NCBI GenBank assembly: GCA_039683575.1
Contig: JBDKRC010000087.1
Location: 1 to 42,584 of the forward strand
Reading direction: 5' to 3'
From: Armatimonadia bacterium
GTDB taxonomy: Bacteria > Armatimonadota > Zipacnadia > Zipacnadales > UBA11051
DNA length: 42,584 nt
The notes under the pieces are model-generated. The model was not told where the DNA came from and searched no databases. It saw nothing but the letters and a program-made list of their open reading frames with translations. This document shows positions 8,162-36,888 of this stretch, piece after piece. Numbering within the stretch: the stretch's first letter is position 1; each line of letters begins with the position of its first letter. A program made the translations under genes and the position numbers.

Positions 8162-8191
8162 ACCTACTGCCCCTGGCCAGGGGCAGTAGGT
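8162..8191. repeat. Perfect 30-bp palindrome
   Basis: ACCTACTGCCCCTGG|CCAGGGGCAGTAGGT. Confidence 0.85.
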
Positions 8192-8920: not shown

Positions 8921-9017
8921 CCGAGCAATAAGAGTGCGGCACAGCTGCTGCGTGAGACGTGGCGGGCGCAGGAGCACAATTCGTCTTAGCACTACAGCCG
9001 CATAGGAAAGACAGACC

Positions 9018-9365: not shown

Positions 9366-9440
9366 CCGACGCGGAGACCCGGGCAGGCCGGCCCGCGTAA
9401 CTGTCGACTGCAATCGCCAGTAGCCAAAGGCTGAAGACAA

Positions 9441-9689: not shown

Positions 9690-9759
9690 GCGTTCGCGGG
9701 CGGGTGAAGTGGCGTTCGGCCTGACAGCGTCTCTGTCCAACGCGGAGGAAGGCACAGGT

Positions 9760-21225: not shown

Positions 21226-21462
21226 TGGCCTGACCCCCTGAAATCGGTCCAGTCGTTGTGTTAGAATAGCACCGGCTGGAGCCTTCTGAAAGGGGTCATT
21301 TTGCATATGCCCAAGAAGCGTTTCACGCCCGAGCAGATCATTGGCAAGCTGCGGGAGGCGGAGGTGGAGCTGGCGAAGGGGGCGACCATCGCCCAGGTCG
21401 CCAAGAAGCTGGAGATCACTGAGCACACGTATTATCGCTGGCGGACAGAGTATGGTGGGATG
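21226..21462 (+). mobile_element. IS3-family remnant (left IR plus truncated orfA)
   Basis: IRL TGGCCTGACCCCCTGAAATCGGTCCAGT at 21226. From ATG 21307: MPKKRFTPEQIIGKLREAEVELAKGATIAQVAKKLEITEHTYYRWRTEYGGM, then interrupted. Confidence 0.85.
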
Positions 21463-21492
21463 TGTAAACGCCGTTCAGAAAGTGCGGCACCC
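21463..21492 (+). mobile_element. Isolated IS21-type terminal repeat
   Basis: TGTAAACGCCGTTCAGAAAGTGCGGCACCC closely matches the IS21 end at 2178-2235. Confidence 0.75.
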
Positions 21493-22510
21493 AGTGCTAC
21501 TGTACATCGGCCCCGCTCCGTGGCGGCGACAAACTCACCCAGTGTTGAACTCTTGCCTGAGCCTGCGGGACCATGCAGGACGATCAGGCCACCGCTGCAG
21601 CGCTCGATAGCATCAACGACTGCTTCTAGAGAGAGGGAAGCAACCAGTTCGGCGTGGGGGTGCAGATGTACGGCGCAGGATTAAGGTCTGAATCGCTAAT
21701 GCCGAGGAGGCCTCGTACATAGTCGGGCGTGATGCTCTGCGCGAACCCGGCCGTGGCCGCCTCCTGGGCGGCAGCCATGAGGTGGTTCACGCCTGCCGCT
21801 GATAATCCGCTATACCATTCCTGGACGAGTAATGAGGCCTCAGCGACGCTCTGCAGAAGGTTGGGCTGACCGAAACCGTCCAACGACAACGCGAGCAGGA
21901 AGCCCGCCGTTTCTTTCGGGTCGTGTAGACCGGTCGCATCCTCCAGTGCTTTCAGTGCCGCCAGCGCATCGTCATCCAGACCGGGGGTGTAGTGGGGGTC
22001 GCATTTGCCCGAAGAAAGGCTGGCTGCATGCTGTCGAAGCGAGGACAGTGCTTGTGCGTCGTCGGCTGCCAGCGGCTGGTTCGACATGATGACCAGCCGC
22101 GATCGCTCGTTGGTCATGTCTTGACCCGAAGCGATGCTGCGCCAATCGGCTGCGATCTTGCCAATGATCGAAGTTTTCCGGCTCTTTCCCCCTCCGCACA
22201 GGCGTGCTAAGGTCCATGGCTTCTCAGGCGCAGCGTAGGAATACCTGATCTGCGTCAGCACAATGGATTTGGCATTCGTGTAGTCGGTACCGCCGTAGAA
22301 CTCAGTCATGTCCGCCGAAATGTAGCGCTCTGCTCCGTCCCCATAGTCACAAACCCCAGCCATACCCTCCATCGTGATTAGACGCAAGTCACTCCTGGGA
22401 TGCAGCATGTCCAGCATCTTCCTGGCGCACCAGAGAAAGTGGTACTGGTCGCCGGCGTTCGAACCCCGCCCTCCACTGCTACTCTGCCCATTCACGTCCT
22501 GTCTTGGCAT
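21493..22510 (-). pseudogene. Truncated and frameshifted Avs3-like nuclease-STAND NTPase
   Basis: ATG 22510, then SNAGDQYHFLWCARKMLDMLHPRSDLRLITMEG...ADMTEFYG...TQIRYS (Cap4-like PD-(D/E)xK-type domain). Past the stop at 21626 another frame gives LIVLHGPAGSGKSST (Walker A, 21549-21572), and the gene is then cut at the IS21 end. Confidence 0.7.
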
Positions 22511-22970: not shown

Positions 22971-23336
22971 ATGGCACAGATAGAGAAAGCCTCGGAACTG
23001 TTGCAGGCGGTCGCTGATGTGAACCGTCTGCGAATTCTCAAGTGCCTGCAGGTGCGGTCAGCCTGTGTCTCCGAGATCGTACACGCCACTGGCATCCCTC
23101 AGTCGCGGGTCTCGCGACACTTGGGCATGCTGCGCAACGCAGGATTGGTGCGCACCTCGCGTGACGGGCAGTGGGTGGAGTGCGCGTGCGTGGGCGACGA
23201 GGCAACGGAGCAGGTGAGGGCGCTGCTGGATTTTGTTGTGAATTGGGTCGAAAACAGCGATGAGGTCGTGTTGGACCGTGAGGGCTTGGCGAAGGCCACG
23301 CGACAGGCGGGTAGCACCCAGGAAGCGGCGGGGTAA
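22971..23336 (+). CDS. ArsR/SmtB-family transcriptional repressor
   Basis: ADVNRLRIL...ACVSEI...PQSRVSRHL..LRNAGLV...RDGQW. The ATG at 22971 follows AGGTGA. Confidence 0.9.
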   Translation: MAQIEKASELLQAVADVNRLRILKCLQVRSACVSEIVHATGIPQSRVSRHLGMLRNAGLVRTSRDGQWVECACVGDEATEQVRALLDFVVNWVENSDEVVLDREGLAKATRQAGSTQEAAG

Positions 23337-23382
23337 TCGGTGCGCCGGTGCAGCACTCGGAGGCGGGAGAGAGGAAGCAACT

Positions 23383-25982
23383 ATGGCTAACGCAGAGAAG
23401 GCACTCACCCTTGAGACGGTCACGCTCCAGATCGAAGGAATGGAGTGTGGCTGCGAGGGAAGCCTGGTCGAAAGGAAGATGAAGGCACTGGCTGGTGTGC
23501 GGAGCTATGAACTCAACTCGATCACCAGCCAGCTTCGGGTTTCCTACGACCCTGAATTCGCGACCGTCCAGGATATCGTCCGCTCTGTCTCAGAGACGGG
23601 CATGAAAGCCTCAATGGTGAAGGGGCAGCGCCGGCGCAGCACCTGGTGGCGTGAGAAACAGCAACTCGCCCTATATGGGTGCGGTCTTCTCACCCTGATT
23701 GCGTTCGTCTCGGGGACCCTGGGTGCGTTACCGATCGTCAGCAACGGACTCTACATACTCGCGGTGCTCACGGGAGTCTTCTACCCGGCGCGGAAGGCAC
23801 TGATCGCGCTCTTGAACCTCACGCCAACGATCCACCTCCTGATGCTGATTGGCTCCGGCGGCGCTATGATGCTTGGCCTGTGGGCCGAATCAGCCATCCT
23901 GATCTTCGTATATTCGCTCGGCGACGTACTCGAGTCCTACGCGGTGGACAAAGCCCGGGGGCCATCCGATCGCTCATGGAGTTGATGCCCAGGGAAGCGC
24001 TGGTACGCACGAATGGCGGCGAGGTAATCCGCTCGATCGAGGAGATTGCGGTGGGCGATATCGTTGTTGTCCGGCCCGGCGAGCGGATTCCCGTGGACGG
24101 ACGCGTCATCCGCGGCTCGTCCTATGTGGATCAAGCGGCCGTCACAGGTGAGCCAATTCCGGTACGCCGAGAGGCTGGCGGAGAGGTTTTTGCCGGGACC
24201 ATCAACCAGAATGGTTCACTTGAGGTGCAGGTGAGGAAACCGGCCTCCGAGGCTATGCTCTCACGGATCATCTATTCGGTCGAAGAGGCGCAGGCCGAGA
24301 AGACCTCTCTGCAGAGATTCTCTGATTCCTTCGGCAAGTACTACACGCCGGCCATGTTCGTTCTCGGCGTACTGGTTGCGACTTTGCCTCCATTGTTCAT
24401 GGGTGCGGAATGGACACCGTTCATCTATCGCGGGCTGGTTGTCTTCGTGGTCTCTTGCTCCTGCGGCCTCGCCTTGTCGGTCCCCGTGGCCGTCGTCGCC
24501 GCCATGGCCAACGCGGCCCGACATGGAGTGGTCTTCAAAGGTGGCGCTTATCTCGAGGCGGTCGACCGGGTAAAGGCGATGGCCTTCGACAAGACCGGCA
24601 CCCTAACCATTGGGCGACCCACGGTTACGGATGTCCTGGCCTTTGGCGTAGCAGATCAGCATGGAGTTCTGGAGCTTGCCAGTGCGGTAGAGGCGCGGTC
24701 GGGACACCCGCTCGCAGCAGCAATCGTGCGGGAAGCGCGCGAGAGCGGGGCGTTCTCTGGCCAGTCTGTAGATGACTTCCATGAGATGGCCGGGCTTGGC
24801 GTCACGGCCACGGTGCGCGGTAGAGCCTGCGTGGTCGGCAGCCCTCGGTGTCACTTGGAGCAGGGCGTGTCTTCCGCGGAGGCCGAGGAAGCTGTCGCCC
24901 GTCTTGAGGACGAAGGCAAGACGGTGGTGTTGGTGAGCGCCGATGGTCATCTGGCCGGCCTTGTGGCCATTGCTGACACCGCGCGGCCCGGGGCAGTCGA
25001 GGCCCTGCAACGGCTCAAGCGGGCCGGGGTCCGAACCGTGATGCTCACCGGAGACAATGAGCGTAGCGGGCACGCGATCGCTCGTATGGTGGGCGTTGAT
25101 GAGTACTACGCCGCACTTCTGCCTACCGACAAGGTCGACGTGATTCGGAGGTTACGGGAGAAATATGGTCCGGTCGCCATGGTCGGCGACGGCATCAACG
25201 ACGCGCCAGCGATGGCCGTTGCCGACGTAGGCATAGCCATGGGCGCGGCAGGTACGGATATCGCGATCGAGGCAGGGGACGTCGTCCTCATGTCCGACGA
25301 TCTCGCGAAGATCGGCTTTGCTCGAGAACTGTACAGTCGTGCCGTAAAGACGATCCGCCAAAACATCATTGTCTCCCTTGTCAATGTGGCCTTCATGGTG
25401 GTCATGGCGCTGCTCGGTTACCTCGCACTGGTTACAGGGCTGCTGCTTAACGAGGGAAGCGCGCTGTTCGTGATTGCGACTGCCCTTGGCTTGCTGAAGT
25501 GGCAGAGTGTCGGAACCGCGGGGGCCATGGTGCCCCAGACGGCGGCTGTGACGGCTCCTCCAGCGCTTTCGTGTTGTGCGTGCGATGAGCCCGCCTGTGA
25601 CTGTGACGAACCCGTTTGCGCGTGCGAGGAGCGTGACCCCGAGGAACACGCCTCGGCTCCGGCTCTCGACGGGGATGATCTGGCCACAGTGACGTTCCAG
25701 ATCGGCGGCGTATGCTCGTGCGAAATGCAAATAGTTGAAAAGCGAGTGAAGGCCCTCCAAGGTGTGAAGACCCTCAGCCTGAACTCGGTAACCAACCAGA
25801 TCAAGGTTACCCATGACCCCGTGGCCGCATCCGTGGGCGCCATTGAGAGGGCGGTGAAAAAAGCAGGGGCGACGGCCGTGCTGCTTGGGCCTGCCACCAC
25901 CATAGCTGGCCAGCCTTCCAAAGCGGGGCCCTGTTGCGGCGGGGAAAACGAGCCAACTGGTGGCGACAGCTGCTGTCGGTGA
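23383..25982 (+). CDS. P1B-type heavy-metal ATPase with a CSC intramembrane motif and N- and C-terminal HMA-like domains; frameshifted at 23957-23961
   Basis: Joins track ORFs 23260..23985 and 23679..25982. Motifs: GMECGC, TGEP, SCSC, DKTGT, HP, TGD and GDGINDAP. One extra G in the G5 run restores KARGAIRSLM. Confidence 0.88.
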
Positions 25983-26126: not shown

Positions 26127-26164
26127 TTGACAGAACTCAAGTAATTGGTTATGTTGCCAAATAG
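26127..26164 (+). promoter_or_regulatory. Promoter and putative ArsR operator (box 1)
   Basis: TTGACA (26127)-17 bp-TATGTT (26150). ATTGGTTATGTTGCCAAATAG at 26144-26164. Confidence 0.65.
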
Positions 26165-26165
26165 T

Positions 26166-26486
26166 ATGACCCAAAACGAAATCTACAAACACAAAGCCCA
26201 GATCATCAAAGCGATGGGACATCCCAGTCGCCTGATGATTATTGACGCCCTGGCCGATGGCGAGAAGTGCGTATGCGAGTTGCAGCAACTCGTCGGCTCC
26301 GACATGTCCACGGTCTCGAAGCATCTTTCGGTGCTACGTAATGCCGGACTGGTAGATGACCGCAAGCAGGGGCTCCAGGTCTTCTACAGCTTGCGGGTGC
26401 CCTGCATCATCAACTTCTTCGGGTGCGTAGAGGCAGTCATGAATCAGCGCACACAGGCCCCGGAGGCATACGCGGCGGCTGAGTGA
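26166..26486 (+). CDS. arsR: ArsR-family repressor with an alpha3 CVC metal(loid) site
   Basis: KAMGHPSRL, GEKCVCEL, STVSKHL..LRNAGLV and a C-terminal PC..NFFGC. Confidence 0.9.
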   Translation: MTQNEIYKHKAQIIKAMGHPSRLMIIDALADGEKCVCELQQLVGSDMSTVSKHLSVLRNAGLVDDRKQGLQVFYSLRVPCIINFFGCVEAVMNQRTQAPEAYAAAE

Positions 26487-26510
26487 GTGACTACTTTTCT
26501 TGTTGCCTAT

Positions 26511-26531
26511 TGTGGTAATTTAGCCAAATAG
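26511..26531 (+). promoter_or_regulatory. Putative ArsR operator (box 2)
   Basis: TGTGGTAATTTAGCCAAATAG aligns without gaps to box 1. Confidence 0.6.
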
Positions 26532-26537
26532 CCAAGT

Positions 26538-26798
26538 ATGGAGATGAAGAACATGAGGATAGAAGTACTGGGCATGGGCTGCACCAAGTGCAAGAAGCTC
26601 GCAGAGTTGACGGCCCAGGCTGTTCAGGAGTTAGGCGTGGAGGCGGAGATCGTGAAGGTTGAGGAAGTCAAAGAGATCATGAAGTACAACGTGCTCAGCA
26701 CGCCGGGGCTGGTGGTGGAAGGGGAATTGAAGGCGGCAGGACGGCTGCCCTCGCTGGACGAGGTCAAGGGCTTCATCCAACAAGCACAGGGAGGCTAA
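26538..26798 (+). CDS. Small redox-active disulfide protein (MTH895-like thioredoxin)
   Basis: IEVLGMGCTKC...YNVLSTPGLVV.G. Confidence 0.9.
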   Translation: MEMKNMRIEVLGMGCTKCKKLAELTAQAVQELGVEAEIVKVEEVKEIMKYNVLSTPGLVVEGELKAAGRLPSLDEVKGFIQQAQGG

Positions 26799-26799
26799 T

Positions 26800-27174
26800 A
26801 TGACTGAGAAACCTGGTTTGATCATGTGCGTGTGCACGGGCAAGTGTCCGGGCTTTGAGAAGATGGACGTCTGGGACTTCATCAACCGGGTCCGGGTGGA
26901 GCTGCCGGTGGAGTATGGCTTCATTCACCCGCAGCTTTGTGAAGAAGACGGCGACCGTTTTCTGGCCGACATGCTGAAGGCCAAGCGCAAGCTGATCGTG
27001 GCGGGGTGTGCGCCGAATATGCAGACCAAGCTGTTTCGCGATGCTTTCGCGGAGGCCGGCATGGACGTGAAGGCGGATCTGGTGCCGCTCGATGTGCGGG
27101 ACATGACGCTGGAGCAGGCGTTTGACAAGGTTGAGAAGGCGCTGGAGGCGATGGGAGTGAGCGCAGATGAGTGA
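26800..27174 (+). CDS. Stand-alone protein resembling the N-terminal domain of heterodisulfide reductase HdrA
   Basis: GLIMCVC...C, HPQLC, IVAGCAP..Q..LF and LDVR pattern. Confidence 0.7.
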   Translation: MTEKPGLIMCVCTGKCPGFEKMDVWDFINRVRVELPVEYGFIHPQLCEEDGDRFLADMLKAKRKLIVAGCAPNMQTKLFRDAFAEAGMDVKADLVPLDVRDMTLEQAFDKVEKALEAMGVSADE

Positions 27175-27457
27175 CGCCACCTTCATGGGTGTGAGCCGCG
27201 AGAAGATTGGCTGGGCCCCGACCATTGACTATAGCAAGTGCAACTTCTGCATGGAGTGCGACGACTTCTGCCCCCACAAGGTGTTCGAGCGGCAGGACGG
27301 TGAGGTCAAGCTGGTAGTGGCTAACGCGAAGAACTGCGTGGTGTTCTGCCGGGCGTGCTCAAAGACCTGCGGCCCCGACGCGATTACCTTCCCCAGTAAG
27401 CCAGAGACCATTGCCGCGATCAAGAAGATCCGCGAGGAAGAGGGCGAGGCTCAGTGA
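27167..27457 (+). CDS. 2x[4Fe-4S] ferredoxin-like protein
   Basis: CNFCMECDDFCP and CVVFCRACSKTCG. Confidence 0.9.
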   Translation: MSDATFMGVSREKIGWAPTIDYSKCNFCMECDDFCPHKVFERQDGEVKLVVANAKNCVVFCRACSKTCGPDAITFPSKPETIAAIKKIREEEGEAQ

Positions 27458-28308
27458 AGTGCGCAGTGCTGGTCTGCAGCGGGTTGGACAAGCCGTTGGG
27501 CTCGCTGGCGCGCGAGGTGGCGTTGTGTGCCGCAGGGCAGGCGGAGTGTGAGATCGTGTGCCCTGTGCTACTCAGCAACTCGCCGGGACGGTATGAAGCT
27601 GTGCTGAAGGACCTGCCGCTGGCGGTGGTAGATGGCTGCGGCACACGTTGTGCGACGAAGCTTGCGACGCAATTGGAGCTTAAGATCACCCGGCGGATGC
27701 TGTTGCCGGAAGCGGTCAAGGAGCTTGGCGAGACCTTTGAGGACAGCCTGCGGCCGGGGCCCAAGGCGCAGGAGTTGGCGCTCAAGCTGGCACTGCAACT
27801 GGTTGCCGACGATGAGGAGCAGGAACCGGCTCCGGAGCTTGAGGCTGTGCTCTTTCCCGAACCTGTCGATTTGCTGAAGGTCACTCACGGAAAGTTCGTT
27901 TTCCCCATTCCGGCCGAGGGATACTTCTTCAACGAAAACGACTGCTGGGTCCAAGTAGTGGGGAGCCGCGCGCGAATCGGCATTAGCGACTATATGCAGC
28001 AGAGCCTGACCGACATCACGTTCTTCGAGGCGCCCGACGTGGGGCGCGCGATCGCGCAGTTCGATGATGCGGGGGCGGTCGAGTCGGCCAAGGCGGTCTT
28101 TGACGTGATCTCGCCGGTCAGCGGCAAGATCGTGGCAGTCAACCCGGTGCTGGATGACACCCCAGAGTTGATCAACGAGCAGCCTTACACGGGCGGCTGG
28201 CTGGTGGAATTGGAACTGGCGGACTTCGATGCCGACCGAGAGTTGCTGCTGACAGCCGAAGAGTACGCGGTGAAGGTGAAGCAGAAGGCGGCAGAAGCTT
28301 CCGCCTAA
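27454..28308 (+). CDS. Fusion of a DGC (putative Zn-binding) domain and a glycine-cleavage H-like lipoyl domain
   Basis: N-terminal CSG...C...VDGCGTRCA. C-terminal WV....ARIGISDY.Q..L.DI, VESAKAV (lipoyl Lys), SPVSG.I..VN..L...PELIN..PY..GWL. Confidence 0.88.
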   Translation: MKCAVLVCSGLDKPLGSLAREVALCAAGQAECEIVCPVLLSNSPGRYEAVLKDLPLAVVDGCGTRCATKLATQLELKITRRMLLPEAVKELGETFEDSLRPGPKAQELALKLALQLVADDEEQEPAPELEAVLFPEPVDLLKVTHGKFVFPIPAEGYFFNENDCWVQVVGSRARIGISDYMQQSLTDITFFEAPDVGRAIAQFDDAGAVESAKAVFDVISPVSGKIVAVNPVLDDTPELINEQPYTGGWLVELELADFDADRELLLTAEEYAVKVKQKAAEASA

Positions 28309-28331
28309 ACAGAAAGAAGGCAGTGTAGCAA

Positions 28332-28748
28332 GTGAAGCAGACAGAACAAGTCTTAGTGATCCCGTGTAGTGGGATCGGCAAGGTGCATGGGCTCATCAGC
28401 CGCGAAGCAACGTATCTGGTGACCGATGAACTCGCGCCCGATCAGGCGGGTACGCTGTGTCTGGCGCTTTTGGTCAAGGGCGATGAGGAAGCTTTGGAGC
28501 GAGTGCGGACGCAGCCGTGCATCACCATCGATGGCTGCCCGAAGGCGTGTGCCCAGAAGAACGTGGCGCTGGCTGGCGGACAGACCGACTGCGCCTTCCA
28601 AGTGCTGCAAGTGCTGAAACAGCACCGTGGCGCCCAACCGGGCTCAGCCTCGGGGCTGAATGAGGTTGGCTGGGCCGTTGCGCGCGAACTGGCTGAATTG
28701 GTTCGAGACAAAGTTACAGAGTTGAGCGGCTGCGAGGTGAAGAGCTAA
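28332..28748 (+). CDS. DGC-domain putative zinc-binding protein
   Basis: PCSG...CL...IDGCPKACA. Confidence 0.85.
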   Translation: MKQTEQVLVIPCSGIGKVHGLISREATYLVTDELAPDQAGTLCLALLVKGDEEALERVRTQPCITIDGCPKACAQKNVALAGGQTDCAFQVLQVLKQHRGAQPGSASGLNEVGWAVARELAELVRDKVTELSGCEVKS

Positions 28749-29431
28749 TGGCTGAAGAGAAACCACGAGTTGGCATCATCTCGTGCAGTGGCGAAGAGAT
28801 CCCTGAGGGCACCATCTCGCGTCTGGCGACCCGGCGCGTGCTGGAGATGCTACGCCCCGATCAGACCGTGACGCTGTGCCTGCCGCTTTTCCTTGCGGGT
28901 GGCGAGCAGGAACGCGACTTCGCCCGCAATCACCCAACGATCACCGTGGACGGCTGTGACAAGCGCTGCGCCCAGTGTGGCACCGAGAAGTATAGCGGCC
29001 CCGTAAGTGCGGCGCTGGTGGTGAGCGACATGCTCAATGGCAAGTACCCCAACTGCGCCCGCAACTCCAGGCAGCGTGGGGAAGTTGACCGAGAAGCAAT
29101 CTGGGTGGTCGCTGAGACCATAGCCGCCGCCGTGGATCAGGTTCTGGCGGAGATTGGGGCAGCGGAGGAATGCGGGTCTGACGACGCGAGCTGTGCCTGC
29201 AGCCGCCCCTTGCCCGGCGGCATGATCGTGGCCAATGGTCAGGAAGTCACCATTCCCGCCCTGAAGATGATCTTCAGCCACCTGGTGGACACGGGAGTCG
29301 CCTCTGTGCCGGAGAACGCGGCGCGGATACTGGAGATGGTGGCTGTCTATCATCCCATCCCCGAGAAGGAGAAAGGCGCTTATCAGGAAGCGCTGCTTGA
29401 GGCTTACCAGAAGCATTGTGCGGAGGCCTAA
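28748..29431 (+). CDS. DGC-domain protein with an extra C-terminal domain
   Basis: SCSG...CL...VDGCDKRCA, then a CAC linker and a ~70-aa helical extension. Confidence 0.85.
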   Translation: MAEEKPRVGIISCSGEEIPEGTISRLATRRVLEMLRPDQTVTLCLPLFLAGGEQERDFARNHPTITVDGCDKRCAQCGTEKYSGPVSAALVVSDMLNGKYPNCARNSRQRGEVDREAIWVVAETIAAAVDQVLAEIGAAEECGSDDASCACSRPLPGGMIVANGQEVTIPALKMIFSHLVDTGVASVPENAARILEMVAVYHPIPEKEKGAYQEALLEAYQKHCAEA

Positions 29432-29486
29432 CCGCAGTTACGCCCCCGCCATTGGCGGGCAATCCCCAGATCAGGGAGAGAAATCA

Positions 29487-29858
29487 ATGTCATCATGTTG
29501 CGCCTGGAAGAAGACGCTGGTGTTCGCGTGCAGTGGCGGTTCGAACGTGGGGCAGCTCAGCAACGAAGCGGCGAAGAAGCTTGACCAAGAGGGTGTGGGC
29601 AGCTTCTTTTGCATGGCGGGCATCGGCGGCGGCCTCGGTGGGTTTGTGGCCAAGTCCAAAGATGCCGATGCCACCGTCGTCATTGATGGGTGCGATATTG
29701 GTTGCGTGAAGGCGGCGTTTGAGCGAGAGGGTGTGCCCATCTCCAAGTACGTTGTCATCACCGATCTGGGCATCGAGAAGGGCCATCACTTCAACCTGGA
29801 GGAAGCCCAGATCGAGACTGTCTGCACCGCCGCGAAGAGAAGTTGCTGTTGCGGGTAG
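29487..29858 (+). CDS. DGC-domain putative zinc-binding protein
   Basis: ACSGGSNVGQ...C...IDGCDIGC...ITDLGIEK, with CC and CCC at the termini. The ATG at 29487 follows GGGAGAG. Confidence 0.88.
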   Translation: MSSCCAWKKTLVFACSGGSNVGQLSNEAAKKLDQEGVGSFFCMAGIGGGLGGFVAKSKDADATVVIDGCDIGCVKAAFEREGVPISKYVVITDLGIEKGHHFNLEEAQIETVCTAAKRSCCCG

Positions 29859-29892
29859 CGTGTTGCCATTCGAAGAAGGAGCTTAGTCACAC

Positions 29893-30411
29893 ATGAAACA
29901 GACGCAAGTTGTTGCCCTCGTTTTCGTTACCCTATTCCTCGGCATTGTCATCGGCATGAAGATCGGCAAGAACCAACCGGCACCCACAGCAGTCGCTGCG
30001 CAGACGGGCGCCGTGTGCCCGACGCTGCCACCAACCGCCGATAGTGCCGCTGCCACTGCTGACACCTCGGCCGGTGGCACGGATAAGTCCGGGTTACCTC
30101 ATCTGGTTGACCTGGGTTCTACCACCTGCATCCCCTGTAAGGAGATGGCTCCCATCCTTGAGGAACTGAAGACGGAGTTCAAGGGCAAGGTCGATGTGGA
30201 GTTCATCAACGTGAACGAAGACGGTGCCGCCGCTGACGAGTACAAGATCAACCTCATTCCCACTCAAGTGTTCATAGATAAGGACGGCAAGGAAGTATTC
30301 CGCCACGAGGGCTTCTTCCCGAAGGCCGACATCCTGGCCCAGTTCGAGAAGATGGGCATCAAGACCAAACAAGCAAGCGAAGGAGTGAGTTCATGCTGCG
30401 CAAGCACATAG
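29893..30411 (+). CDS. Membrane-anchored or exported thioredoxin
   Basis: N-terminal hydrophobic segment, DLGSTTCIPC, IPTQVF and RHEG. Confidence 0.88.
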   Translation: MKQTQVVALVFVTLFLGIVIGMKIGKNQPAPTAVAAQTGAVCPTLPPTADSAAATADTSAGGTDKSGLPHLVDLGSTTCIPCKEMAPILEELKTEFKGKVDVEFINVNEDGAAADEYKINLIPTQVFIDKDGKEVFRHEGFFPKADILAQFEKMGIKTKQASEGVSSCCAST

Positions 30412-31610
30412 GTCTGTTCGTGATCATTGCGGTTGCTGCCTCAGTGGCGGTCTCTGCCGGGGCCCAGGGGGCGGCGAAGTTGCCGAAGTTGTTGGACCTG
30501 GGCTCAACCACCTGCATCCCATGTAAGCAGATGGCGCCGATTCTGGACGAACTGAAGAAGGAACTGGCTGGCAAGATCGACGTGGAGTTTGTGAATGTCA
30601 ACGACAGGCTGGACCTGGCAAACAAGTACAAGATAGAGTTCATCCCCACTCAAGTCTTCCTGGATGCCAGTAGCAGGGAGCTCTTTCGCCATGTCGGCTT
30701 CTATGGCAAGGACGAGATCCTCGCCAAGTTGACGGAGCTTGGCCTGTCGGCAGGCACGACCATCGTCGAGAGTTTCAGTCGTTGGGCGCCTGTGCAGCCT
30801 GACACACGGGCTAAGGACGCCATCTGCTACATGTGTGACGGTGACGTAAATCCCAGGACCACAGTGGCCGTGAGGACGGCCAAGGGCGACGTCCACCTGT
30901 GCTCTCCGCACTGCCTGTCCATCATGCTGTCATCTTTGACCGCCGACCGCGCCGAGGTGGAGAAGCAGGCTTACGTAACGGACTTTGCGACCGGCCAGAG
31001 CGTGCCGCTGCAGAACGCGAGCTATCTGTACACGCTCGATGAGCAGACGGGACGCCCGTCGGTCATCGCCTTCGCCAGCCGCGACGCCGCGCTGGCCGCC
31101 CGGCGCGACAACGGCGGCAGCGTCCTGACTTATCCCTTGCTACAGGCTAAGGAAACGGCCACCCGCTGTGGCTTTTGTGACCGGGCCGTATACCCTGAGG
31201 ATGCGGCTTTGGTCAAAGCGGGCGGCGTCTACACCTATGGCTGCTGCTCGCACTGCGCCCTCGGTGTCGCGGCCCGCACCGGCGCCAGCATTGAGGTCCA
31301 CGAGCGAGACCGTTTGACCGGCGAGCCAATCATCATCAAGACGTTGGAGGGGAAGATTGCTTCGCTGGAGCCGGCGACGGCCGTGGCGTGGTTCGGCCAA
31401 CGCACCAAGCCCGACGGCAAGCGTGCGTCCGCTGGGTGCTTCCACCAGGGCTTCTTCGTCTCGTCTGAGAACCTGCAGAAGTGGGTTGCGGCCCACCCGC
31501 TGGAAACTGGAGAGATGATCCCGATTGCCAAGGCGCTGGCCGACAAGATGGCCCTATCGGCGGAGCAGATCAGCAAGGCCTGCAAGATTGGCGAATGCGC
31601 GCCGAAATAG
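30393..31610 (+). CDS. Exported thioredoxin + NosL-like + MerB-like fusion protein
   Basis: Signal peptide, then CIPC thioredoxin. Middle: CYMC...CSPHC...YVTDF..G......A.Y...IAFAS...A......GG (NosL-like). C-terminal: TYGCCSHC...TGEPI.......I.SLEP.TAV...SAGCFHQGFF.S......W...H (MerB-like). Confidence 0.7.
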   Translation: MLRKHIGLFVIIAVAASVAVSAGAQGAAKLPKLLDLGSTTCIPCKQMAPILDELKKELAGKIDVEFVNVNDRLDLANKYKIEFIPTQVFLDASSRELFRHVGFYGKDEILAKLTELGLSAGTTIVESFSRWAPVQPDTRAKDAICYMCDGDVNPRTTVAVRTAKGDVHLCSPHCLSIMLSSLTADRAEVEKQAYVTDFATGQSVPLQNASYLYTLDEQTGRPSVIAFASRDAALAARRDNGGSVLTYPLLQAKETATRCGFCDRAVYPEDAALVKAGGVYTYGCCSHCALGVAARTGASIEVHERDRLTGEPIIIKTLEGKIASLEPATAVAWFGQRTKPDGKRASAGCFHQGFFVSSENLQKWVAAHPLETGEMIPIAKALADKMALSAEQISKACKIGECAPK

Positions 31611-31624
31611 GGAAGGGGCTGTCC

Positions 31625-32407
31625 ATGCGACGGGTGATCGTTCTGACATTGCTCTCGGCGTGCTGCGCTATGGCGCAGGCTCAGGTCGGTGTGTCGGCAG
31701 CAGGCAGCAGAGCCCCGAATGCTCTGCTGCACGATCTGGCCGGGAAGGCTCTCCAGCTTAGTAGCGCCTGTTCGGACCAAGTGACAGTTCTGTGTTTTGG
31801 CCGGCTAAGTTGGCGTCCCTGCCGCGGGGTGGCGGCAGAATTGCAGAGGCTCCAGCAGCAGTACCGCGACGACCGCGTCGCCTTCTACTGGATCGAGGTG
31901 GGCGGAACGGTAAAGGCCACAGCCGCTGCTGGGGCGGGAATGAACCTGACGTTGCCGGTATTACTGGACGGCGACTGCAAGGTGGCGGCAGAGTATGACG
32001 TCATGGCTCTTCCGCATGTCTTTCTCATAGATGCCTCAGGGATCGTCCGTATCAGTCACATCGGCTACCAACCTGAACTCCCCGCAATGCTCGCTGGGCT
32101 GATCGAGCAATACCGCCCCCAGCCCAGACCCAAGCTGCCGCGGTTGGTAGAGATTGAGGGCCTTGGGTGTGTCGCCTGTAAGACCATGCCGCCGTTGCTC
32201 CGGGAGTTGCAGGAAGAGTTGCAGGGCAAGGTCACCATCGAGATCATGGACTTCAACCCGGACCTCGTTGATCGGTACCGGCTTGAGGTCATGCCTACCC
32301 AGATCTTCTTCAACGGCGATGGCGATGAGGTGTCTCGCCACACGGGGCTGATGTCGAAGGACGAGATGCTGGACCGGTTCAAGAAGATGGGCGTGGCAGT
32401 CGAGTAG
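31625..32407 (+). CDS. Exported redoxin (TlpA/AhpC-TSA-like) + thioredoxin two-domain protein
   Basis: ATG 31625 and a signal peptide. The first domain has SWRPC and LPHVFLID; the second has GCVAC and MPTQIF. Confidence 0.8.
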   Translation: MRRVIVLTLLSACCAMAQAQVGVSAAGSRAPNALLHDLAGKALQLSSACSDQVTVLCFGRLSWRPCRGVAAELQRLQQQYRDDRVAFYWIEVGGTVKATAAAGAGMNLTLPVLLDGDCKVAAEYDVMALPHVFLIDASGIVRISHIGYQPELPAMLAGLIEQYRPQPRPKLPRLVEIEGLGCVACKTMPPLLRELQEELQGKVTIEIMDFNPDLVDRYRLEVMPTQIFFNGDGDEVSRHTGLMSKDEMLDRFKKMGVAVE

Positions 32408-32431
32408 TCCCCACGCAACAGGAGAGCAATC

Positions 32432-33115
32432 TTGGACATCATACAGGCGCTGCAACAGGCGCTGGCCAACTCATCGCTGCTGGTGGTGCCGCTGGTGCTG
32501 CTGGGTGGCGCGGCAACAGGCCTGAATCCGTGCGTCTTCCCGACCATTCCCGTGGTCATCGGCTACATCTCCGGTCAGAAAGAGCAGCCGCGATGGAAGG
32601 GCCTGGCGCTGGCGCTGACCTTCGTGCTGGGGCTCGCGATCACCTACGTGATCATCGGAGCCACCGCCTCGTTCGTGGGCAGCGTACTGGGCATCTCCAA
32701 GGCTGGCTGGATGTACATCGTGGCGGCGGTCTGTATTCTTGTCGGCATCAACATGTCGGGGCTAATCTCGGTCAGCTTCGATACCTTCATTCCGGCGCAG
32801 TCCAAGTGGTCCAAGCTCAGCGGCTATGGTGGCGCCCTGGTGCTGGGGATGCTCTTCGGTCTTGTGGCCAGCCCGTGCGCCATGCCGATCTTGACGCTGA
32901 TTCTGGCGCTGATCGCCCAGAAGGGCCAGGTCGCATACGGTTCGCTGCTGATGTTCACCTACGCCGTCGGGCACGGCCTCCCGCTGATCATCATTGGCAC
33001 TGTCGCGGGTGCACTGACGAGCCTGGAACGCTTTACCAAGTATTCTGTCGTTATCCAGCGCGTCGGAGGCTGGATGCTGCTGGCCGTCGGCGCGTACTTC
33101 ATCTGGATGGCTTAA
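32432..33115 (+). CDS. ccdA: CcdA/DsbD transmembrane disulfide-reducing protein
   Basis: NPCVFPTIP and ASPC..P motifs; about 6 TM segments. Confidence 0.9.
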   Translation: MDIIQALQQALANSSLLVVPLVLLGGAATGLNPCVFPTIPVVIGYISGQKEQPRWKGLALALTFVLGLAITYVIIGATASFVGSVLGISKAGWMYIVAAVCILVGINMSGLISVSFDTFIPAQSKWSKLSGYGGALVLGMLFGLVASPCAMPILTLILALIAQKGQVAYGSLLMFTYAVGHGLPLIIIGTVAGALTSLERFTKYSVVIQRVGGWMLLAVGAYFIWMA

Positions 33116-33139
33116 CCAATACGGGAGAATGACGGGAAC

Positions 33140-33652
33140 ATGCGTAGAAGTTACAGTATCGTGACTGCAGCGGCGCTCTTTGCAGGTCTTTTCGTGGCTG
33201 CTCATGCCGAGGGCCTCAGCGTGGGCACCAAGGCTCCGAATTTCACGCTCAAGACCCTTGGCGGCAAGAGCTACCAACTGTCGAGCTACAAAGGCAAGAG
33301 CGTAGTCGTGCTGGATTTCGGACGGTTCACCTGCATGCCCTGCCGGGATATGCTGAAGGACCTGCAGAAACTGCAGGCCAAGTACAAGGGGCAACGGGTC
33401 CAAATCTTCTCAGTCAACCTCGATGGCGGCATGGCCCCTCGCGTGGTGCCCAAGGGCATCAAGGATCTGGGCGTGACCTTTCCGGTGCTGCAGGACAGCG
33501 CCTCCAAGGCTGCCACAGCGTACAAAGCAACTACCATTCCGTACGTGGTGGTAGTAGACAGGCAGGGCATCGTGCGCTTCTCACACATGGGCTACGACGG
33601 CAGCTTGCGCAGCAAGCTGGACACATTGATCGCCAAGTATCGAGGAAAGTAG
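33140..33652 (+). CDS. Exported TlpA/ResA-like disulfide reductase
   Basis: Signal peptide, APNFTL, CMPC and IPYVVVVD. Confidence 0.88.
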   Translation: MRRSYSIVTAAALFAGLFVAAHAEGLSVGTKAPNFTLKTLGGKSYQLSSYKGKSVVVLDFGRFTCMPCRDMLKDLQKLQAKYKGQRVQIFSVNLDGGMAPRVVPKGIKDLGVTFPVLQDSASKAATAYKATTIPYVVVVDRQGIVRFSHMGYDGSLRSKLDTLIAKYRGK

Positions 33653-33661
33653 GCATTTGGC

Positions 33662-34502
33662 ATGGAGGACATCAAGCGACAAGTCCAAGAAAACTACGGA
33701 GCAGTGGCCCGAGCGGGGGGCCGTGGCTGCGGGGACGGGCCCGAGACCGCGATTGACCCCGAGGCTGTAGGCTATGCTGCGGGCGACCTCGCCGCTGCCC
33801 CAGATGGCTCGAACATGGGCCTCGGATGCGGCAACCCGCTTGCGCTGGCTGATCTCAAACCGGGCGAGACGGTGCTCGACCTCGGCAGTGGCGGAGGATT
33901 TGACTGTTTCCTCGCGGCCAATGCCGTCGGACCGCATGGGCACGTAATCGGTGTGGATATGACGCCTGATATGATCGCCGTCGCCAACCGCAATGCCGAA
34001 AAGGGTGGCTTCGCTAACGTCGAGTTTCGGCTGGGTGACATCGAGACACTGCCGGTGGGCGATGGCGACGTGGATGTGATTACCAGCAACTGCGTAATCA
34101 ACCTCGTGCCGGACAAGCACAAGGCCTTTGCGGAGGCTTTCCGGGTACTCAAGCCGGGCGGAAGACTTCACGTTTCCGATATCGTACTTACCTGCGAGCA
34201 ACTCCCGGAAATGCTCCAGGACCAGCAGGCCTACGTCAACTGCATCGCAGGCGCTGCAGGACGCAGGCTTTGTCAACGTCACAGTCCATACTGAGAAAGA
34301 CGCTGCCTTGCTACTCGACAGTGGCTGCTGCGCTCCCCCGGCTGCAGACGAAAGCTGTTGTTGCGAGGCTGATGATGACGAGCCGCCATGTTGTTGCGGT
34401 GCGGAGCCCGAGGGGGCAGGCTGCGGGTGCGGCGCCGGCCCGTTGGATTTGCCGGAGGGGCTGGTCGTCTCGATGACCGTCAGTGCGAACAAACCGCTGT
34501 AG
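33662..34502 (+). pseudogene. arsM: Arsenite S-adenosylmethyltransferase with a frameshifting deletion near 34250
   Basis: GLGCGNP, VLDLGSGGGFDC, GVDMT, SNCVINL, LKPGG and CIAGA. The C-terminus (LQDAGF...VVSMTVSANKP) is in another frame. Confidence 0.85.
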
Positions 34503-35052: not shown

Positions 35053-35661
35053 ATGCACATGCTGGATAAGGACTTGCTGGAACTGGGTATGAAGTTTCAC
35101 GGGCACAAGTGCCCGGCCATGCCAATGGGGCTGCGCACTGCCCTCGCGGCGATGAAGGCCCTGGGAGTGGAGCACGCTGCCGACGGCCAACTCATGGCGC
35201 TGATTGAGATCGACGAGGATCATTGCGCGACCTGCTGGGCTGACGGGGTGCAGGTAGCGACCGGCTGCACGTTGGGCAAGGGCAACATCAAGAAGCTGCA
35301 CTACGGCAAGTGGGGGCTGACCCTCATTGACAAGAAGACGCAGCGCGCCGTGCGCGTGGTGCCCAAGGCCGCGGCCATGCAAAAGAGCAAGGAATCCGAG
35401 TTCATGGCCTTGCGCAAGTCGGGTGTGCCGGCTTCCCAGGTGCCGGCCGAGGTGGCTGACCCGCTGGTGGAAATGGTCAGCAACGCTCCGGATGAAATGC
35501 TCTTGGACATCGGCGAGGTCATGCCCTACGAGTGGCACGACGCCCCGCACACGTTCGAGAGCCTCGTCTGCGAGGGTTGTGGCGAGATGGTGGTGGAGCG
35601 CAATGCTCGCGTCAAGGCCGGCAAGACGCTGTGCATTCCCTGCTCGGGATACGGCAAATAG
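35053..35661 (+). CDS. FmdE-family protein with C-terminal zinc finger
   Basis: FHGHKCP...G.R, C.ADGVQ..TGCTLGKGN and CEGCGE...CIPC. Confidence 0.9.
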   Translation: MHMLDKDLLELGMKFHGHKCPAMPMGLRTALAAMKALGVEHAADGQLMALIEIDEDHCATCWADGVQVATGCTLGKGNIKKLHYGKWGLTLIDKKTQRAVRVVPKAAAMQKSKESEFMALRKSGVPASQVPAEVADPLVEMVSNAPDEMLLDIGEVMPYEWHDAPHTFESLVCEGCGEMVVERNARVKAGKTLCIPCSGYGK

Positions 35662-35671
35662 GCAATGAACC

Positions 35672-35712
35672 AGGCGGTCGGGGCCTTCGTGCCGCGAAGG
35701 CCCCGACCGCCT
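35672..35712 (+). terminator. 18-bp perfect hairpin after the FmdE gene (no U-tract)
   Basis: AGGCGGTCGGGGCCTTCG-TGCCG-CGAAGGCCCCGACCGCCT. Confidence 0.5.
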
Positions 35713-35762
35713 CAGGAAGCCCGGCTGGTAGCGCCGGGCCCTAGGAATGGAAGGCAGGAGCG

Positions 35763-36353
35763 ATGACAGTGCAGCAAACCCCCGCCCCTGACGCAGGCAA
35801 AGTGTCATTGCGGGAGATAGCCAGGGCCTTTCTGACTATCGGCACAATCGGCTTTGGCGGCGGCATGGCAGTAGTCGCTCTCATCCAGGACCACTGTGTG
35901 GTCAGGCGGCGCTGGCTGGAACCGGATGAGTTTTCACACGGCATCGCGCTGGGCCAGATCCTCGGGCCATTTGCGGTGAACGCTTCGATTTTTGTCGGCT
36001 ACAGGCTCAGAGGCCTGCAGGGCGCAGTGGTCGCGGCGGTATCATTCCTCATTCCCTCTGTCACCCTCGTCATCATTCTCAGCGCCCTGTATGTCAGGTT
36101 CCACCACGTGCCCTCGCTACAGGCGGCCCTCAAGGGCATCGGCCCAGTCGTCGTGGCGCTGATTATCGCAGCGGCCTGGCAGATGGGCAAGGCCCAATTT
36201 CGTTCGTTGGAGTTCGTGCTGCTCATGGTCGTGGCTATCGCGTTGACCATGTTCCTGAAGCTTCAGACAGTTCCGCTGCTGCTGTTGGCGGCAGCTTACG
36301 CCTTCCTCAAGATCCGGTTCGCCAAGGGAGGCAAGGCCAATGAAGGCGCTTAG
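35763..36353 (+). CDS. chrA: Short-chain chromate transporter, first half
   Basis: FLTIG.IGFGGG, WL...EF......GQILGP and GYRLRG..GA. Confidence 0.9.
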   Translation: MTVQQTPAPDAGKVSLREIARAFLTIGTIGFGGGMAVVALIQDHCVVRRRWLEPDEFSHGIALGQILGPFAVNASIFVGYRLRGLQGAVVAAVSFLIPSVTLVIILSALYVRFHHVPSLQAALKGIGPVVVALIIAAAWQMGKAQFRSLEFVLLMVVAIALTMFLKLQTVPLLLLAAAYAFLKIRFAKGGKANEGA

Positions 36354-36888
36354 TTGGTTGGCTCTGCCCTTGCTGCCGGCGCTGGCCTGGGTCTTCCTGA
36401 AGATCGGCCTGGTGTTCTTCGGCGGCGGGTTCGTCGCCATTCCCCTGACGCACAGAGAACTCGTACAGAACCTGCACTGGCTCACGGAAGCTCAGTTCGT
36501 TGATGGCCTCGCCATCAGCCAGTTGACGCCCGGACCGGTCGCCGTACTGGCTACCTTTGCCGGCTATGTGGTCGCCGGGGTGCCAGGAGCATTGGTGGCC
36601 ACGGCCGCCATCTTCTTGCCCGGCAGTGTGCTCATGATCTTCCTGTCGCGAAGTTATGAACTTCTCAGGAAGCGTGATCTGGCACGGCAGATACTCAATA
36701 CCCTGATTCCGGTCATCGCTGGACTGCTGGTGGCGGCCTCACTGCAGATCGCCCGGACGACTGTAGCCGGCTGGGTGGACGTAGCAGTCCTGCTGGTGTC
36801 GCTGGTGGCCCTCACTAAGTTCAAGGTAAATCCGGCTTTCCTGGTCATCGGGGGAGCCCTCTTGGCCCTGGCGCGGAGCCGCATATGA
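36340..36888 (+). CDS. chrA: Short-chain chromate transporter, second half
   Basis: FLKIG...FGGG, WLT..QF.DG.AISQLTPGP and IFLP. Confidence 0.9.
   Translation: MKALSWLALPLLPALAWVFLKIGLVFFGGGFVAIPLTHRELVQNLHWLTEAQFVDGLAISQLTPGPVAVLATFAGYVVAGVPGALVATAAIFLPGSVLMIFLSRSYELLRKRDLARQILNTLIPVIAGLLVAASLQIARTTVAGWVDVAVLLVSLVALTKFKVNPAFLVIGGALLALARSRI

Follow-up and report, generated by a model that had tools for sequence, protein, structure and literature searches.

In Mycobacterium tuberculosis, reducing power is relayed from NADH through Lpd to the lipoyl group of DlaT and further to AhpD and AhpC (PMC12028322). The sHdr-LbpA systems join GcvH-like lipoate-binding proteins with Hdr-like iron-sulfur (Fe-S) proteins, under ArsR-type repressors that sense sulfane sulfur (PMC11094781, PMC12423496). 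The nearest described case of a DGC (PF08859) gene is the ArsR5-ArsP-ArsE-DGC operon of Pseudodesulfovibrio mercurii ND132, which is listed as differentially expressed with arsenic; its authors took "DGC" for a diguanylate-cyclase motif, and the protein is of unknown function there (bioRxiv 10.1101/2022.10.17.512643). Here we describe a gene module that is akin in kind to known lipoyl-based thiol relays and ars (arsenic) operons and is built from three uncharacterised protein families. It lies at positions 26800-29858 of a 42,584-nucleotide stretch from an Armatimonadia bacterium (contig JBDKRC010000087.1 of assembly GCA_039683575.1; the whole stretch is called the window below). In the literature searched, mostly outside subscription journals, we found no description of such a lipoyl/DGC-GcvH/P124 module in ars operons.

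We propose, with a probability of roughly 0.4, that the module works, under arsenic control, as a lipoyl dithiol relay that ferredoxin or NADH recharges and that feeds thioredoxin-like ars proteins. Below, P124 denotes the HdrA-N-terminal-like protein, Fd the ferredoxin, DGC-GcvH the fusion protein, H domain its GcvH-type part, DGC2 and DGC3 the free DGC paralogues, and DGC4 the canonical DGC protein. The genes of the module, with the two that precede them, are as follows.

26145..26486, plus strand: ArsR/SmtB-family repressor (PF01022, 56.3 bits; NF033788, 92 bits against a cut-off of 55)
26538..26798, plus strand: ArsE/MTH895-type thioredoxin-like protein with a CxxC motif (PF13192, 92.3 bits; TIGR00412, 99.7 bits against a cut-off of 62)
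26800..27174, plus strand: P124, 124 amino acids, no Pfam match, similar to the HdrA N-terminus, presumed Fe-S carrier
27167..27457, plus strand: Fd, 96 amino acids, two four-Cys motifs, presumed 2x[4Fe-4S] (Fer4, 27.8 bits); overlaps P124 by 8 nt
27454..28308, plus strand: DGC-GcvH, 284 amino acids, DGC at residues 1 to about 120, flexible linker, GcvH-type lipoyl domain; overlaps Fd by 4 nt
28332..28748, plus strand: DGC2 (PF08859); follows DGC-GcvH after a gap of 23 nt
28748..29431, plus strand: DGC3 (PF08859), with a C-terminal extension of about 85 amino acids; overlaps DGC2 by 1 nt
29397-29858, plus strand: open reading frame (ORF) of DGC4, likely ATG at 29487 with GGGAGAG shortly upstream, 55 nt after DGC3

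A preliminary description of this DNA had pointed to six coupled genes at 26800-29858, and the ORF coordinates confirm the coupling (overlaps of 8, 4 and 1 nt, gaps of 23 and 55 nt). The composition it gave needs one addition: the ArsE-type thioredoxin gene, separated from the start of P124 by 1 nt, is part of the same unit and had been left out. The ArsR with a CVC site that it placed upstream of the module is indeed there (PF01022, NF033788): CVC occupies residues 42-44 and matches two of the three Cys of a Type-1 site, the third is absent, and two further Cys lie near the C-terminus (the types of As(III) site in ArsR, including Type-1, are treated in PMC11868830).

Comparison with the closest described systems

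The likeness to the M. tuberculosis relay lies in a protein-bound lipoyl group which, reduced by Lpd with NADH, passes reducing power to a thioredoxin-like CxxC protein serving a detoxifying enzyme. The matching features of the module are its lipoyl domain, dihydrolipoyl dehydrogenase (Lpd) in 18 of the 80 loci analysed below, the abutting ArsE-type gene and, in the window, AhpC-family genes downstream. In contrast to that relay, which uses the E2 of pyruvate dehydrogenase as carrier, the module has a GcvH-type domain of its own for this purpose, joined to DGC; the two Fe-S proteins and the two DGC paralogues have no counterpart there; and the thioredoxin-like protein is of the ArsE/MTH895 type, not AhpD, in an arsenic-type regulon. 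With the sHdr-LbpA systems the module shares a GcvH-like lipoate-binding protein, Hdr-related Fe-S proteins and an ArsR-type repressor. It differs from them in having only the N-terminal domain of HdrA, as a 124-residue protein, and in its neighbours, which are ars and not sulfur genes; the window has no HdrB/C-type CCG domains, and no DsrE/TusA/rhodanese set appeared in Pfam scans of its ORFs (46 ORFs covered). Membership in an sHdr/Hdr complex was considered and rejected, as there are no CCG subunits and no flavin adenine dinucleotide (FAD)-binding or Pyr_redox domain in the module genes.

ArsEFG is reportedly a system for the detoxification of roxarsone and nitarsone, said to have been described by Chen, Zhang and Rosen in 2019. 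The gene at 26538-26798 belongs to the NCBIfam MTH895/ArsE family and an ArsF-family gene accompanies the module in one locus, L033, whereas the window has neither ArsF nor ArsG. The ND132 operon likewise has a PF08859 protein after an ArsE-type (PF13192) thioredoxin under ArsR control; unlike the window, it has one canonical, DGC4-like DGC and no lipoyl carrier, P124 or ferredoxin.

A five-gene unit conserved across phyla

A survey of one genome per species (185,579 species) gave 292 matching stretches, 268 of which encode a DGC-GcvH relative. All counts out of 80 refer to the best 80 of these 268 confirmed loci, each with up to 8 kb per side. Using the window proteins as phmmer queries against all ORFs of the 80 loci (the ORFs were called mechanically and some starts are over-extended), we found that 74 have P124, Fd, DGC-GcvH, DGC2 and DGC3 together on a single strand in no more than 2.5 kb. 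Of the other six, five run into a contig end, and in the sixth the Fd ORF was not separately called. The recurrence of the same five genes on one strand in 74 of 80 loci indicates an arrangement beyond chance. A DGC4-type gene is present in 10 loci. The conserved core is a set of five genes, with two free DGC paralogues, and DGC4 is accessory.

At the protein level, relatives of DGC-GcvH form 857 clusters at E ≤ 1e-3; 117 of the best 120 carry both Pfam domains, and the other three are shorter. By their record titles, 37 of the 80 loci come from Acidobacteriota, 26 from Firmicutes, 5 from Actinomycetota, 4 from Planctomycetota, 2 from bacteria labelled Cyanobacteria/Melainabacteria and one each from Chloroflexota, Armatimonadota and a Desulfovibrio-labelled record, with 3 unlabelled, so that the module loci are labelled as at least seven phyla. 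Closest to the window is the Desulfovibrio-labelled locus, at 83-84% identity. In a quick maximum-likelihood tree (81 rows, midpoint root) the fusion proteins group largely by phylum: nine labelled groups are separated by 9 changes, against a minimum of 8 and a mean of 33.4 after shuffling. The exceptions are Actinomycetota, found in two places, and the Melainabacteria rows, which fall within Firmicutes. This grouping suggests that the module has been mostly stable within phyla and is not freshly mobile.

The DGC-GcvH fusion and its presumed lipoyl arm

The C-terminal half of DGC-GcvH matches PF01597 (GCV_H) with 108.4 bits (cut-off 22.2). The H domain also reaches the cut-off of NF002270 (119.1 bits against 117) and does not reach that of the equivalog TIGR00527 (111.2 against 115.85). 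Lys213, in the motif ESAKA, aligns with the lysine of ESVKA in Escherichia coli GcvH, and both K213 and the DGC cysteines Cys8, Cys36, Cys62 and Cys66 are invariant in 20 of 20 fusion homologues. The predicted structure has a pLDDT of 89.9, with a low-confidence linker at about residues 121-125 between the DGC and H domains; the H domain superposes on the pea H protein (1dxm_A) with Z = 23.1 and a root-mean-square deviation (rmsd) of 0.9 A over 131 residues. A DGC domain fused to a GcvH-like domain with an intact lipoyl lysine, as first read from the sequence, is thus borne out (PF08859, PF01597, K213).

Fold and lipoyl-lysine motif are those of the glycine cleavage H protein. In contrast to that protein, however, the H domain is fused to DGC, has no P or T proteins nearby and is a second copy beside a canonical gcvH, which stands next to a lipoate ligase gene on contig C212 of the same genome; a second ligase (LplA) is on C250. 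The presence of the canonical gcvH elsewhere in the genome suggests that the DGC-GcvH copy is specialised. The name "glycine cleavage system protein H", under which public sources list the fusion homologues, is probably misleading.

The genes expected to serve a lipoyl group are frequent next to the module. A lipoate ligase gene is present in 42 of 80 loci, in 35 directly after DGC3; its TIGR00545 scores were 435 and 292.7 bits in two loci (cut-off 280) and only 97 bits in one acidobacterial locus, where Pfam LplA-B_cat gave 133.6. Dedicated lipoate ligases are also a feature of sHdr-LbpA systems. Of the 18 loci with Lpd, 10 have it directly before P124, and the TIGR01350 scores (496-519 bits against a cut-off of 408.8) identify it in four of four tested loci. 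In the genome studied here, the one bona fide dihydrolipoyl dehydrogenase is encoded on C238. Judged from gene content, the ligase and Lpd adjacent to the module in relatives fit a lipoyl arm that is attached and recharged. The constancy of the lipoyl carrier and the frequency of ligase and Lpd suggest that the lipoyl group would be the working part, cycling between disulfide and dithiol.

P124 and the ferredoxin as presumed electron carriers

P124 has no Pfam match. It aligns with the HdrA family NF041778 (residues 2-90 on profile positions 5-91) with E = 0.006 and 14.4 bits, far below the full-length cut-off, and with three sets of HdrA chains of the PDB with E = 0.03-0.14; C10, C12, C47 and C70 align with Cys of HdrA. 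The fold is clearer. HdrA chains are the top Foldseek matches of the P124 model (pLDDT 83.4), which superposes on residues ~2-139 of HdrA in six entries with Z = 10.1-11.3 and rmsd 3.2-3.4 A over 115-121 residues at 21-23% identity; the next unrelated structure has Z = 7.3. Weak sequence matches, fold and ligand cysteines together uphold the view of P124 as a stand-alone HdrA N-terminal-like protein.

A profile built from 25 sequences retrieved only 132 proteins at E ≤ 1e-3 from 1.84 billion representatives; two of them are HdrA-like proteins that carry FAD and Fer4 domains and are matched at their N-termini (E = 7e-5 and 4e-4). Two longer P124 relatives were found, neither with another domain. 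As in the N-terminal domain of methanogen HdrA, the CxC, C and C positions are kept: C10, C12, C47 and C70 are invariant in 21 of 21 sequences of the wider family. In contrast to HdrA, P124 stands alone and its module subfamily has a fifth invariant cysteine, C16, so that Cys10, 12, 16, 47 and 70 are all invariant in 25 of 25 module sequences. In HdrA, the N-terminal domain binds an Fe-S cluster that lies on the way of electrons to ferredoxin and receives one of its ligands from a partner subunit (PMC9012536), and by analogy P124 presumably binds such a cluster. The models of P124 and the DGC proteins show a similar order of strands and helices, and we considered P124 as a DGC paralogue; profile-profile comparison detected no sequence similarity (probabilities of 0.2% and 0.1%), and we do not claim homology.

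The eight Cys of Fd, in two four-Cys motifs, are invariant in 20 of 20 sequences, which together with the Fer4 match bears out a ferredoxin, presumably of the 2x[4Fe-4S] type; its best NCBIfam matches, all under the cut-off, are HgcB-like. Across phyla, P124 and Fd share 56-90% identity with the window proteins (mean column identity 74% in each alignment) and look like pure electron carriers. Of the "mini Hdr-like/ferredoxin unit" in the preliminary description, the HdrA-N-like domain is real; it is the electron-transfer domain only, without a CCG subunit or FAD domain.

The DGC proteins

All four DGC domains exceed the PF08859 cut-off of 27 bits: DGC-GcvH with 44.8, DGC2 with 53.3, DGC3 with 54.8 and DGC4 with 110.4. 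The three further DGC genes proposed next to the fusion thus exist; of these, DGC4 is canonical and not divergent, besides being accessory. C12, C43, D67-G68-C69 and C73 of DGC2 are invariant in 25 of 25 sequences, as are C13, C44, D68-G69-C70 and C74 of DGC3 in 22 of 22. The DGC domain of the fusion, DGC2 and DGC3 therefore have four Cys in common: one after strand 1, one after strand 2, one in D-G-C and one four residues on. DGC2 and DGC3 are clear paralogues (hhalign probability 99.7%). The C-terminal extension of DGC3 is confined, among 22 aligned sequences, to the window, L008, L010 and L039, and had no Pfam match and no usable match in the ESM Atlas.

The DGC fold is flavodoxin-like, with 3pu6_A as the best solved match (Z = 7.1). 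The description of PF08859 suggests zinc binding; the four-Cys site could hold Zn or an Fe-S cluster or form redox-active disulfides. DGC4 has Cys-rich termini, starting with CC and ending with CCC-G, and among the 22 aligned DGC3 sequences those of L033, L049, L057, L061, L073 and L087 end in a Gly/Cys run, five of them labelled Firmicutes and one Cyanobacteria.

Arsenic and thioredoxin genes around the module

Neighbouring genes within 8 kb on either side were labelled by phmmer comparison with exemplar proteins, and 112 of the 113 labelled ars-like ORFs were compared with NCBIfam; the counts above curated cut-offs given here are among the matches listed. ArsR-family genes are present in 66 of 80 loci. 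In 40 loci an ArsR-family ORF ends no more than 1.5 kb upstream of P124; 39 of these regulators have a CxC motif, 24 at the helix-3 site of R773 ArsR, 14 in a C-terminal three-Cys motif and 1 elsewhere; the helix-3 and C-terminal positions are both known As(III) sites (PMC11868830). Acr3 was labelled in 23 loci, ArsC-like genes in 21, ArsM in 20, ArsA in 9, ArsD in 8 and ArsP-type permeases, which match PF03773 only, in 14 plus 11 in which they are split. Curated cut-offs are exceeded by Acr3 in 19 loci, by ArsM in 14, by ArsA in at least 7 and by ArsD in at least 6, and at least 32 of 80 loci have one of these four. With 74 complete loci, 66 with ArsR and at least 32 with ars genes, the anticipated conservation of the module as a unit that recurs with arsR and ars genes is well supported.

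The most constant partner is the ArsE-type thioredoxin, by adjacency as well as by fusions with DGC and ArsM. It was labelled in 48 loci and directly precedes P124 in 35. In six Acidobacteriota loci (L016, L027, L028, L029, L032 and L066) the gene directly upstream of P124 encodes an ArsM-ArsE fusion (NF008823, 332-354 bits; C-terminal TIGR00412, 96-102 bits). All six of six longer DGC4 homologues are fusions of DGC with PF13192, the ArsE-type thioredoxin domain, in both domain orders. Fusions thus tie DGC both to a lipoyl carrier and to a thioredoxin with CxxC, and the latter is fused to ArsM in six loci. A general hand-off of substrate to ArsM, as had been suggested, cannot be the core function, since ArsM above cut-off lies near the module in only 14 of 80 loci. 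Other thiol-redox genes were labelled less often (Trx1 in 9 loci, CcdA in 8).

A second DGC locus of the same genome, on contig C102 (7733-10231, minus strand), consists of three genes.

9653-10231, minus strand: fusion of a helix-turn-helix domain (HTH_17) and an ArsE-type thioredoxin (PF13192)
8633-9592, minus strand: tandem DGC-DGC protein
7733-8494, minus strand: MIP channel

The ArsF-family gene of L033 (6256-6633) follows an ArsE-type gene and precedes a DsbD-like gene and the module; it scores 94.6 bits against a cut-off of 60 with NF040494, which NCBIfam names nitrophenyl-compound nitroreductase subunit. Firmicutes loci such as L059, L065, L067, L070, L072 and L081-L083, among others, have a cysteine desulfurase gene and a gene for a PF04060 Fe-S-domain protein, mostly on the opposite strand (11 and 16 of 80 loci, respectively; TIGR01977, 495.7 bits against 377 for the desulfurase of L059). 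The two may have a part in assembling clusters or supplying sulfur.

Six-frame family searches of the Armatimonadia genome itself, which is 96% complete, found no Acr3. ArsP_1 is encoded on contigs C18 and C286, an ArsC-like (pI258-type) gene lies beside ArsP_1 on C18, and CCG (PF02754, HdrB-type) domains occur only on C286 and C300. Searches for Acr3 and ArsP_1 found no efflux permease in the window. The absence from the window of lipoate ligase, HdrB-type CCG, arsC, acr3 and an ArsP-type permease, noted at the outset, is therefore correct, these families being on other contigs or nowhere. Neither gcvP nor gcvT turned up in the Pfam scans of the 46 window ORFs; no family search was aimed at these two.

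A proposed lipoyl dithiol relay and its alternatives

From the computed gene content, domain families, invariant residues, folds, conservation as a unit, neighbours and fusions we infer lipoylation, cofactors, direction of electron flow and clients as follows. The H domain would be lipoylated, in many relatives by the ligase encoded directly after DGC3 and here by one of the genome's two ligases. Low-potential electrons passing through Fd and the Fe-S cluster of P124 would convert the lipoyl disulfide to the dithiol, and where Lpd is encoded beside the module NADH could act as an additional reductant. Such a supply of low-potential electrons to the arm resembles a ferredoxin-dependent disulfide reductase. 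The DGC domains, with four invariant Cys each, might be sites of docking or exchange between the swinging arm and its clients, which would mainly be ArsE-type thioredoxin-like proteins. These in turn would keep arsenic-handling proteins reduced; ArsM, fused to ArsE in six relatives, is a candidate, and further candidates in the window are CcdA with the exported thioredoxin, AhpC and MerB-like proteins. The fusions, which point to ArsE-type thioredoxins as partners of DGC, favour the relay.

Several observations weigh against it. The dihydrolipoyl arm is itself a prime target of As(III), so that a relay working under arsenic stress looks paradoxical and capture of the metalloid fits better. P124 and Fd are kept even where Lpd is present, which suggests that the two reductant routes are not simple alternatives. 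No ArsE-type gene was seen within 8 kb in 32 of 80 loci, and six-frame family searches found neither a lipoate ligase nor an Lpd gene in the window. Six of the exemplar-based "ArsM" labels proved to be generic methyltransferases, and the ArsC-like matches are all below equivalog cut-offs among the matches listed. A fold search with the full DGC-GcvH model gave, for DGC, generic flavodoxin-like matches only (Z ≤ 7.1), and the Cys-rich tails of DGC4 and of some Firmicutes DGC3 proteins look like metal(loid)-binding tags. As regards expression, three metatranscriptome libraries and one DNA run, all from the same wastewater study, contain the stretch. Contigs from the RNA libraries are identical to the window at 26785-27406, 27285-27523, 28717-29357 and 28815-29515, among others, spanning the P124/Fd, Fd/DGC-GcvH and DGC2/DGC3 junctions and leaving gaps in the coverage of the operon, for example at 26269-26735. 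DNA can persist in RNA libraries, and these contigs are therefore a weak hint of expression and no proof of transcription.

A tentative alternative, nearly as likely as the relay, is that the arm captures arsenic: the reduced lipoyl group, perhaps with the four-Cys sites of the DGC domains, would chelate As(III) or methylarsenite and deliver it to ArsM or to efflux, and P124/Fd and Lpd would serve only to hold the arm in the dithiol form. That dithiols such as dihydrolipoamide bind trivalent arsenicals tightly is established chemistry, and ligase, Lpd and Fe-S carriers fit capture as well as a relay. Capture would also account for the Cys-rich termini of DGC4 and the Cys-rich DGC3 tail of some Firmicutes, and is in line with the six ArsM-ArsE fusions directly upstream of P124, with the Acr3, ArsA and ArsD genes labelled in 23, 9 and 8 loci, and with an own genome that lacks Acr3 while the window operon holds ArsM. 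However, there is no constant acceptor, ArsM being above cut-off in only 14 loci; ArsD is already the chaperone in Firmicutes loci with ArsA; and for a DGC domain fused to a thioredoxin-like CxxC domain, disulfide exchange is a better match than metal transfer. Two enzymatic readings are weaker. In one, which we consider unlikely, the module would reduce pentavalent arsenicals (arsenate, methylarsonate or aromatic ones) or perform some other oxygen-free transformation of arsenic. Its electron input is complete and no catalytic subunit is recognisable, so that the catalytic site could sit in the DGC proteins, and the association with ArsE, and in L033 with ArsF, as well as ArsC-like neighbours that stay below equivalog cut-offs, could be read in the same way. 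Yet ArsC-like genes are still found in 21 loci and elsewhere in the own genome, no substrate-binding family is recognisable, and the sole ground for the idea is the absence of an assigned function. In the other, rather unlikely as well, the DGC proteins would be new Fe-S, not zinc, enzymes acting with P124 and Fd on an arsenical tethered to the dihydrolipoyl arm; they might be an oxygen-independent reductase of pentavalent or methylated arsenicals, or an anaerobic enzyme that cleaves C-As bonds or thiolates arsenic. We know of no gene in anaerobes for such arsenical reduction, C-As cleavage or arsenic thiolation. If this were true, the module would be an enzyme so far missing from the anoxic arsenic cycle, and one that acetogens and Acidobacteriota of peat and soil possess.

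It appears quite improbable that the system is not specific for arsenic and deals with sulfane sulfur, persulfides or general thiol stress through an ArsR-type sensor, by a logic similar to that of sHdr-LbpA. The parallel is the one drawn above, namely GcvH-like lipoate-binding proteins joined with Hdr-like Fe-S proteins under ArsR-type repressors sensing sulfane sulfur (PMC11094781, PMC12423496), and the window ArsR is a weak match to BigR (58.2 bits against a cut-off of 155). Cysteine desulfurase and the PF04060 gene beside the module in Firmicutes (11 and 16 loci), DsrE/DsrH genes 4 kb upstream in one locus (L053) and the wealth of thioredoxin and AhpC genes in the window operon would suit such a role. 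On the other hand, the window has no CCG (HdrB-type) subunit or FAD-binding HdrA, the Pfam scans of its ORFs found neither TusA nor rhodanese, bona fide arsenic genes are neighbours in at least 32 loci, and CVC-type motifs like those of the regulators are known from ArsRs that respond to As(III) (PMC11868830). Finally, a housekeeping H protein of glycine cleavage, incidentally fused to DGC, is suggested by the public name of the homologues and by the NF002270 score and is hardly credible: the score for TIGR00527 falls short, the scanned window ORFs include neither gcvP nor gcvT, a canonical GcvH is encoded beside a ligase on C212, and the fixed neighbours are Fe-S, DGC and ars genes. We rejected this candidate in view of the canonical gcvH elsewhere and the lack of P and T proteins in the scanned ORFs.

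If the lipoyl dithiol relay is correct, arsenic biology would acquire a class of component new to it, namely a lipoylated protein reserved for this purpose that comes with a ligase, a dehydrogenase and an Fe-S electron input of its own. It would also provide the first functional context for DGC (PF08859), for stand-alone HdrA-N-like proteins and for ArsE-type thioredoxins with roles other than in roxarsone metabolism. The module is frequent among Acidobacteriota of soil and peat and among acetogenic Firmicutes, groups relevant to arsenic mobility and methylation in anoxic soils. Its carriers include the cultured and partly genetically tractable Clostridium ljungdahlii, C. ragsdalei, Eubacterium callanderi, Acetobacterium and Moorella, which makes the hypotheses directly testable.

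The operon and its surroundings in the window

Upstream of the module genes, and downstream in an accessory thiol-redox block (29893..33652) followed by ArsM, the window contains the following features.

26127..26164, plus strand: promoter-like site TTGACA-17 nt-TATGTT before arsR, a consensus match only
26146-26164, plus strand: copy 1 of a 19-nt direct repeat, before arsR, overlapping the -10 element of the promoter-like site
26513..26531, plus strand: copy 2 of the repeat, just upstream of the ArsE-type gene, 84% identical to copy 1
29893-30411, plus strand: thioredoxin (Trx1)
30393-31610, plus strand: thioredoxin and MerB-like protein
31481-32407, plus strand: AhpC/thioredoxin
32432-33115, plus strand: CcdA/DsbD membrane electron carrier
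33140-33652, plus strand: AhpC/redoxin
33662..34294, plus strand: ArsM, arsenite methyltransferase (NF008823, 281.5 bits against a cut-off of 263; PF13847, 142.5 bits)

Promoter-like sites occur at chance frequency, 2 being found and 2.0 expected from shuffled sequences. The 19-nt direct repeat may be an ArsR operator, or its second copy may be a second promoter element. A consensus scan of the plus strand from 26486 to 34294 found no intergenic terminator-like site, the two that it returned being inside genes. ArsM lies 3.8 kb downstream of the six-gene module.

In the product of 30393-31610 (405 amino acids), a hydrophobic stretch at the N-terminus is accompanied by a thioredoxin domain and, at the C-terminus, by a MerB-like domain, which scores 67.6 bits with PF03243 (cut-off 27) but 35.8 bits with NCBIfam MerB (cut-off 200). 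The latter score rules out a bona fide organomercurial lyase. Similar MerB-like/thioredoxin genes were labelled in 3 of 80 loci. Beyond the operon, 35053-36888 encodes an FmdE-domain protein with a C4 zinc finger and then the chromate transporter ChrA as two half-size genes; in some Acidobacteriota loci ChrA1 (8 of 80) or FmdE (3 of 80) is also near the module.

Further upstream, the window contains a phage-type integrase gene (561-1544, minus strand) and a transposase helix-turn-helix fragment (21301-21684, plus strand), the latter just upstream of a metal-resistance block that starts with a second ArsR at 22866. Also in this region, at 23260-25982, a heavy-metal P-type ATPase is split: an HMA ORF (23260-23985) overlaps the ATPase ORF (23679-25982) in another frame, and the C-terminus of the ATPase ORF carries a second HMA domain. 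In run X1, a DNA contig shows one additional G behind 23956, so that the window carries either a real frameshift or an assembly error at this point.

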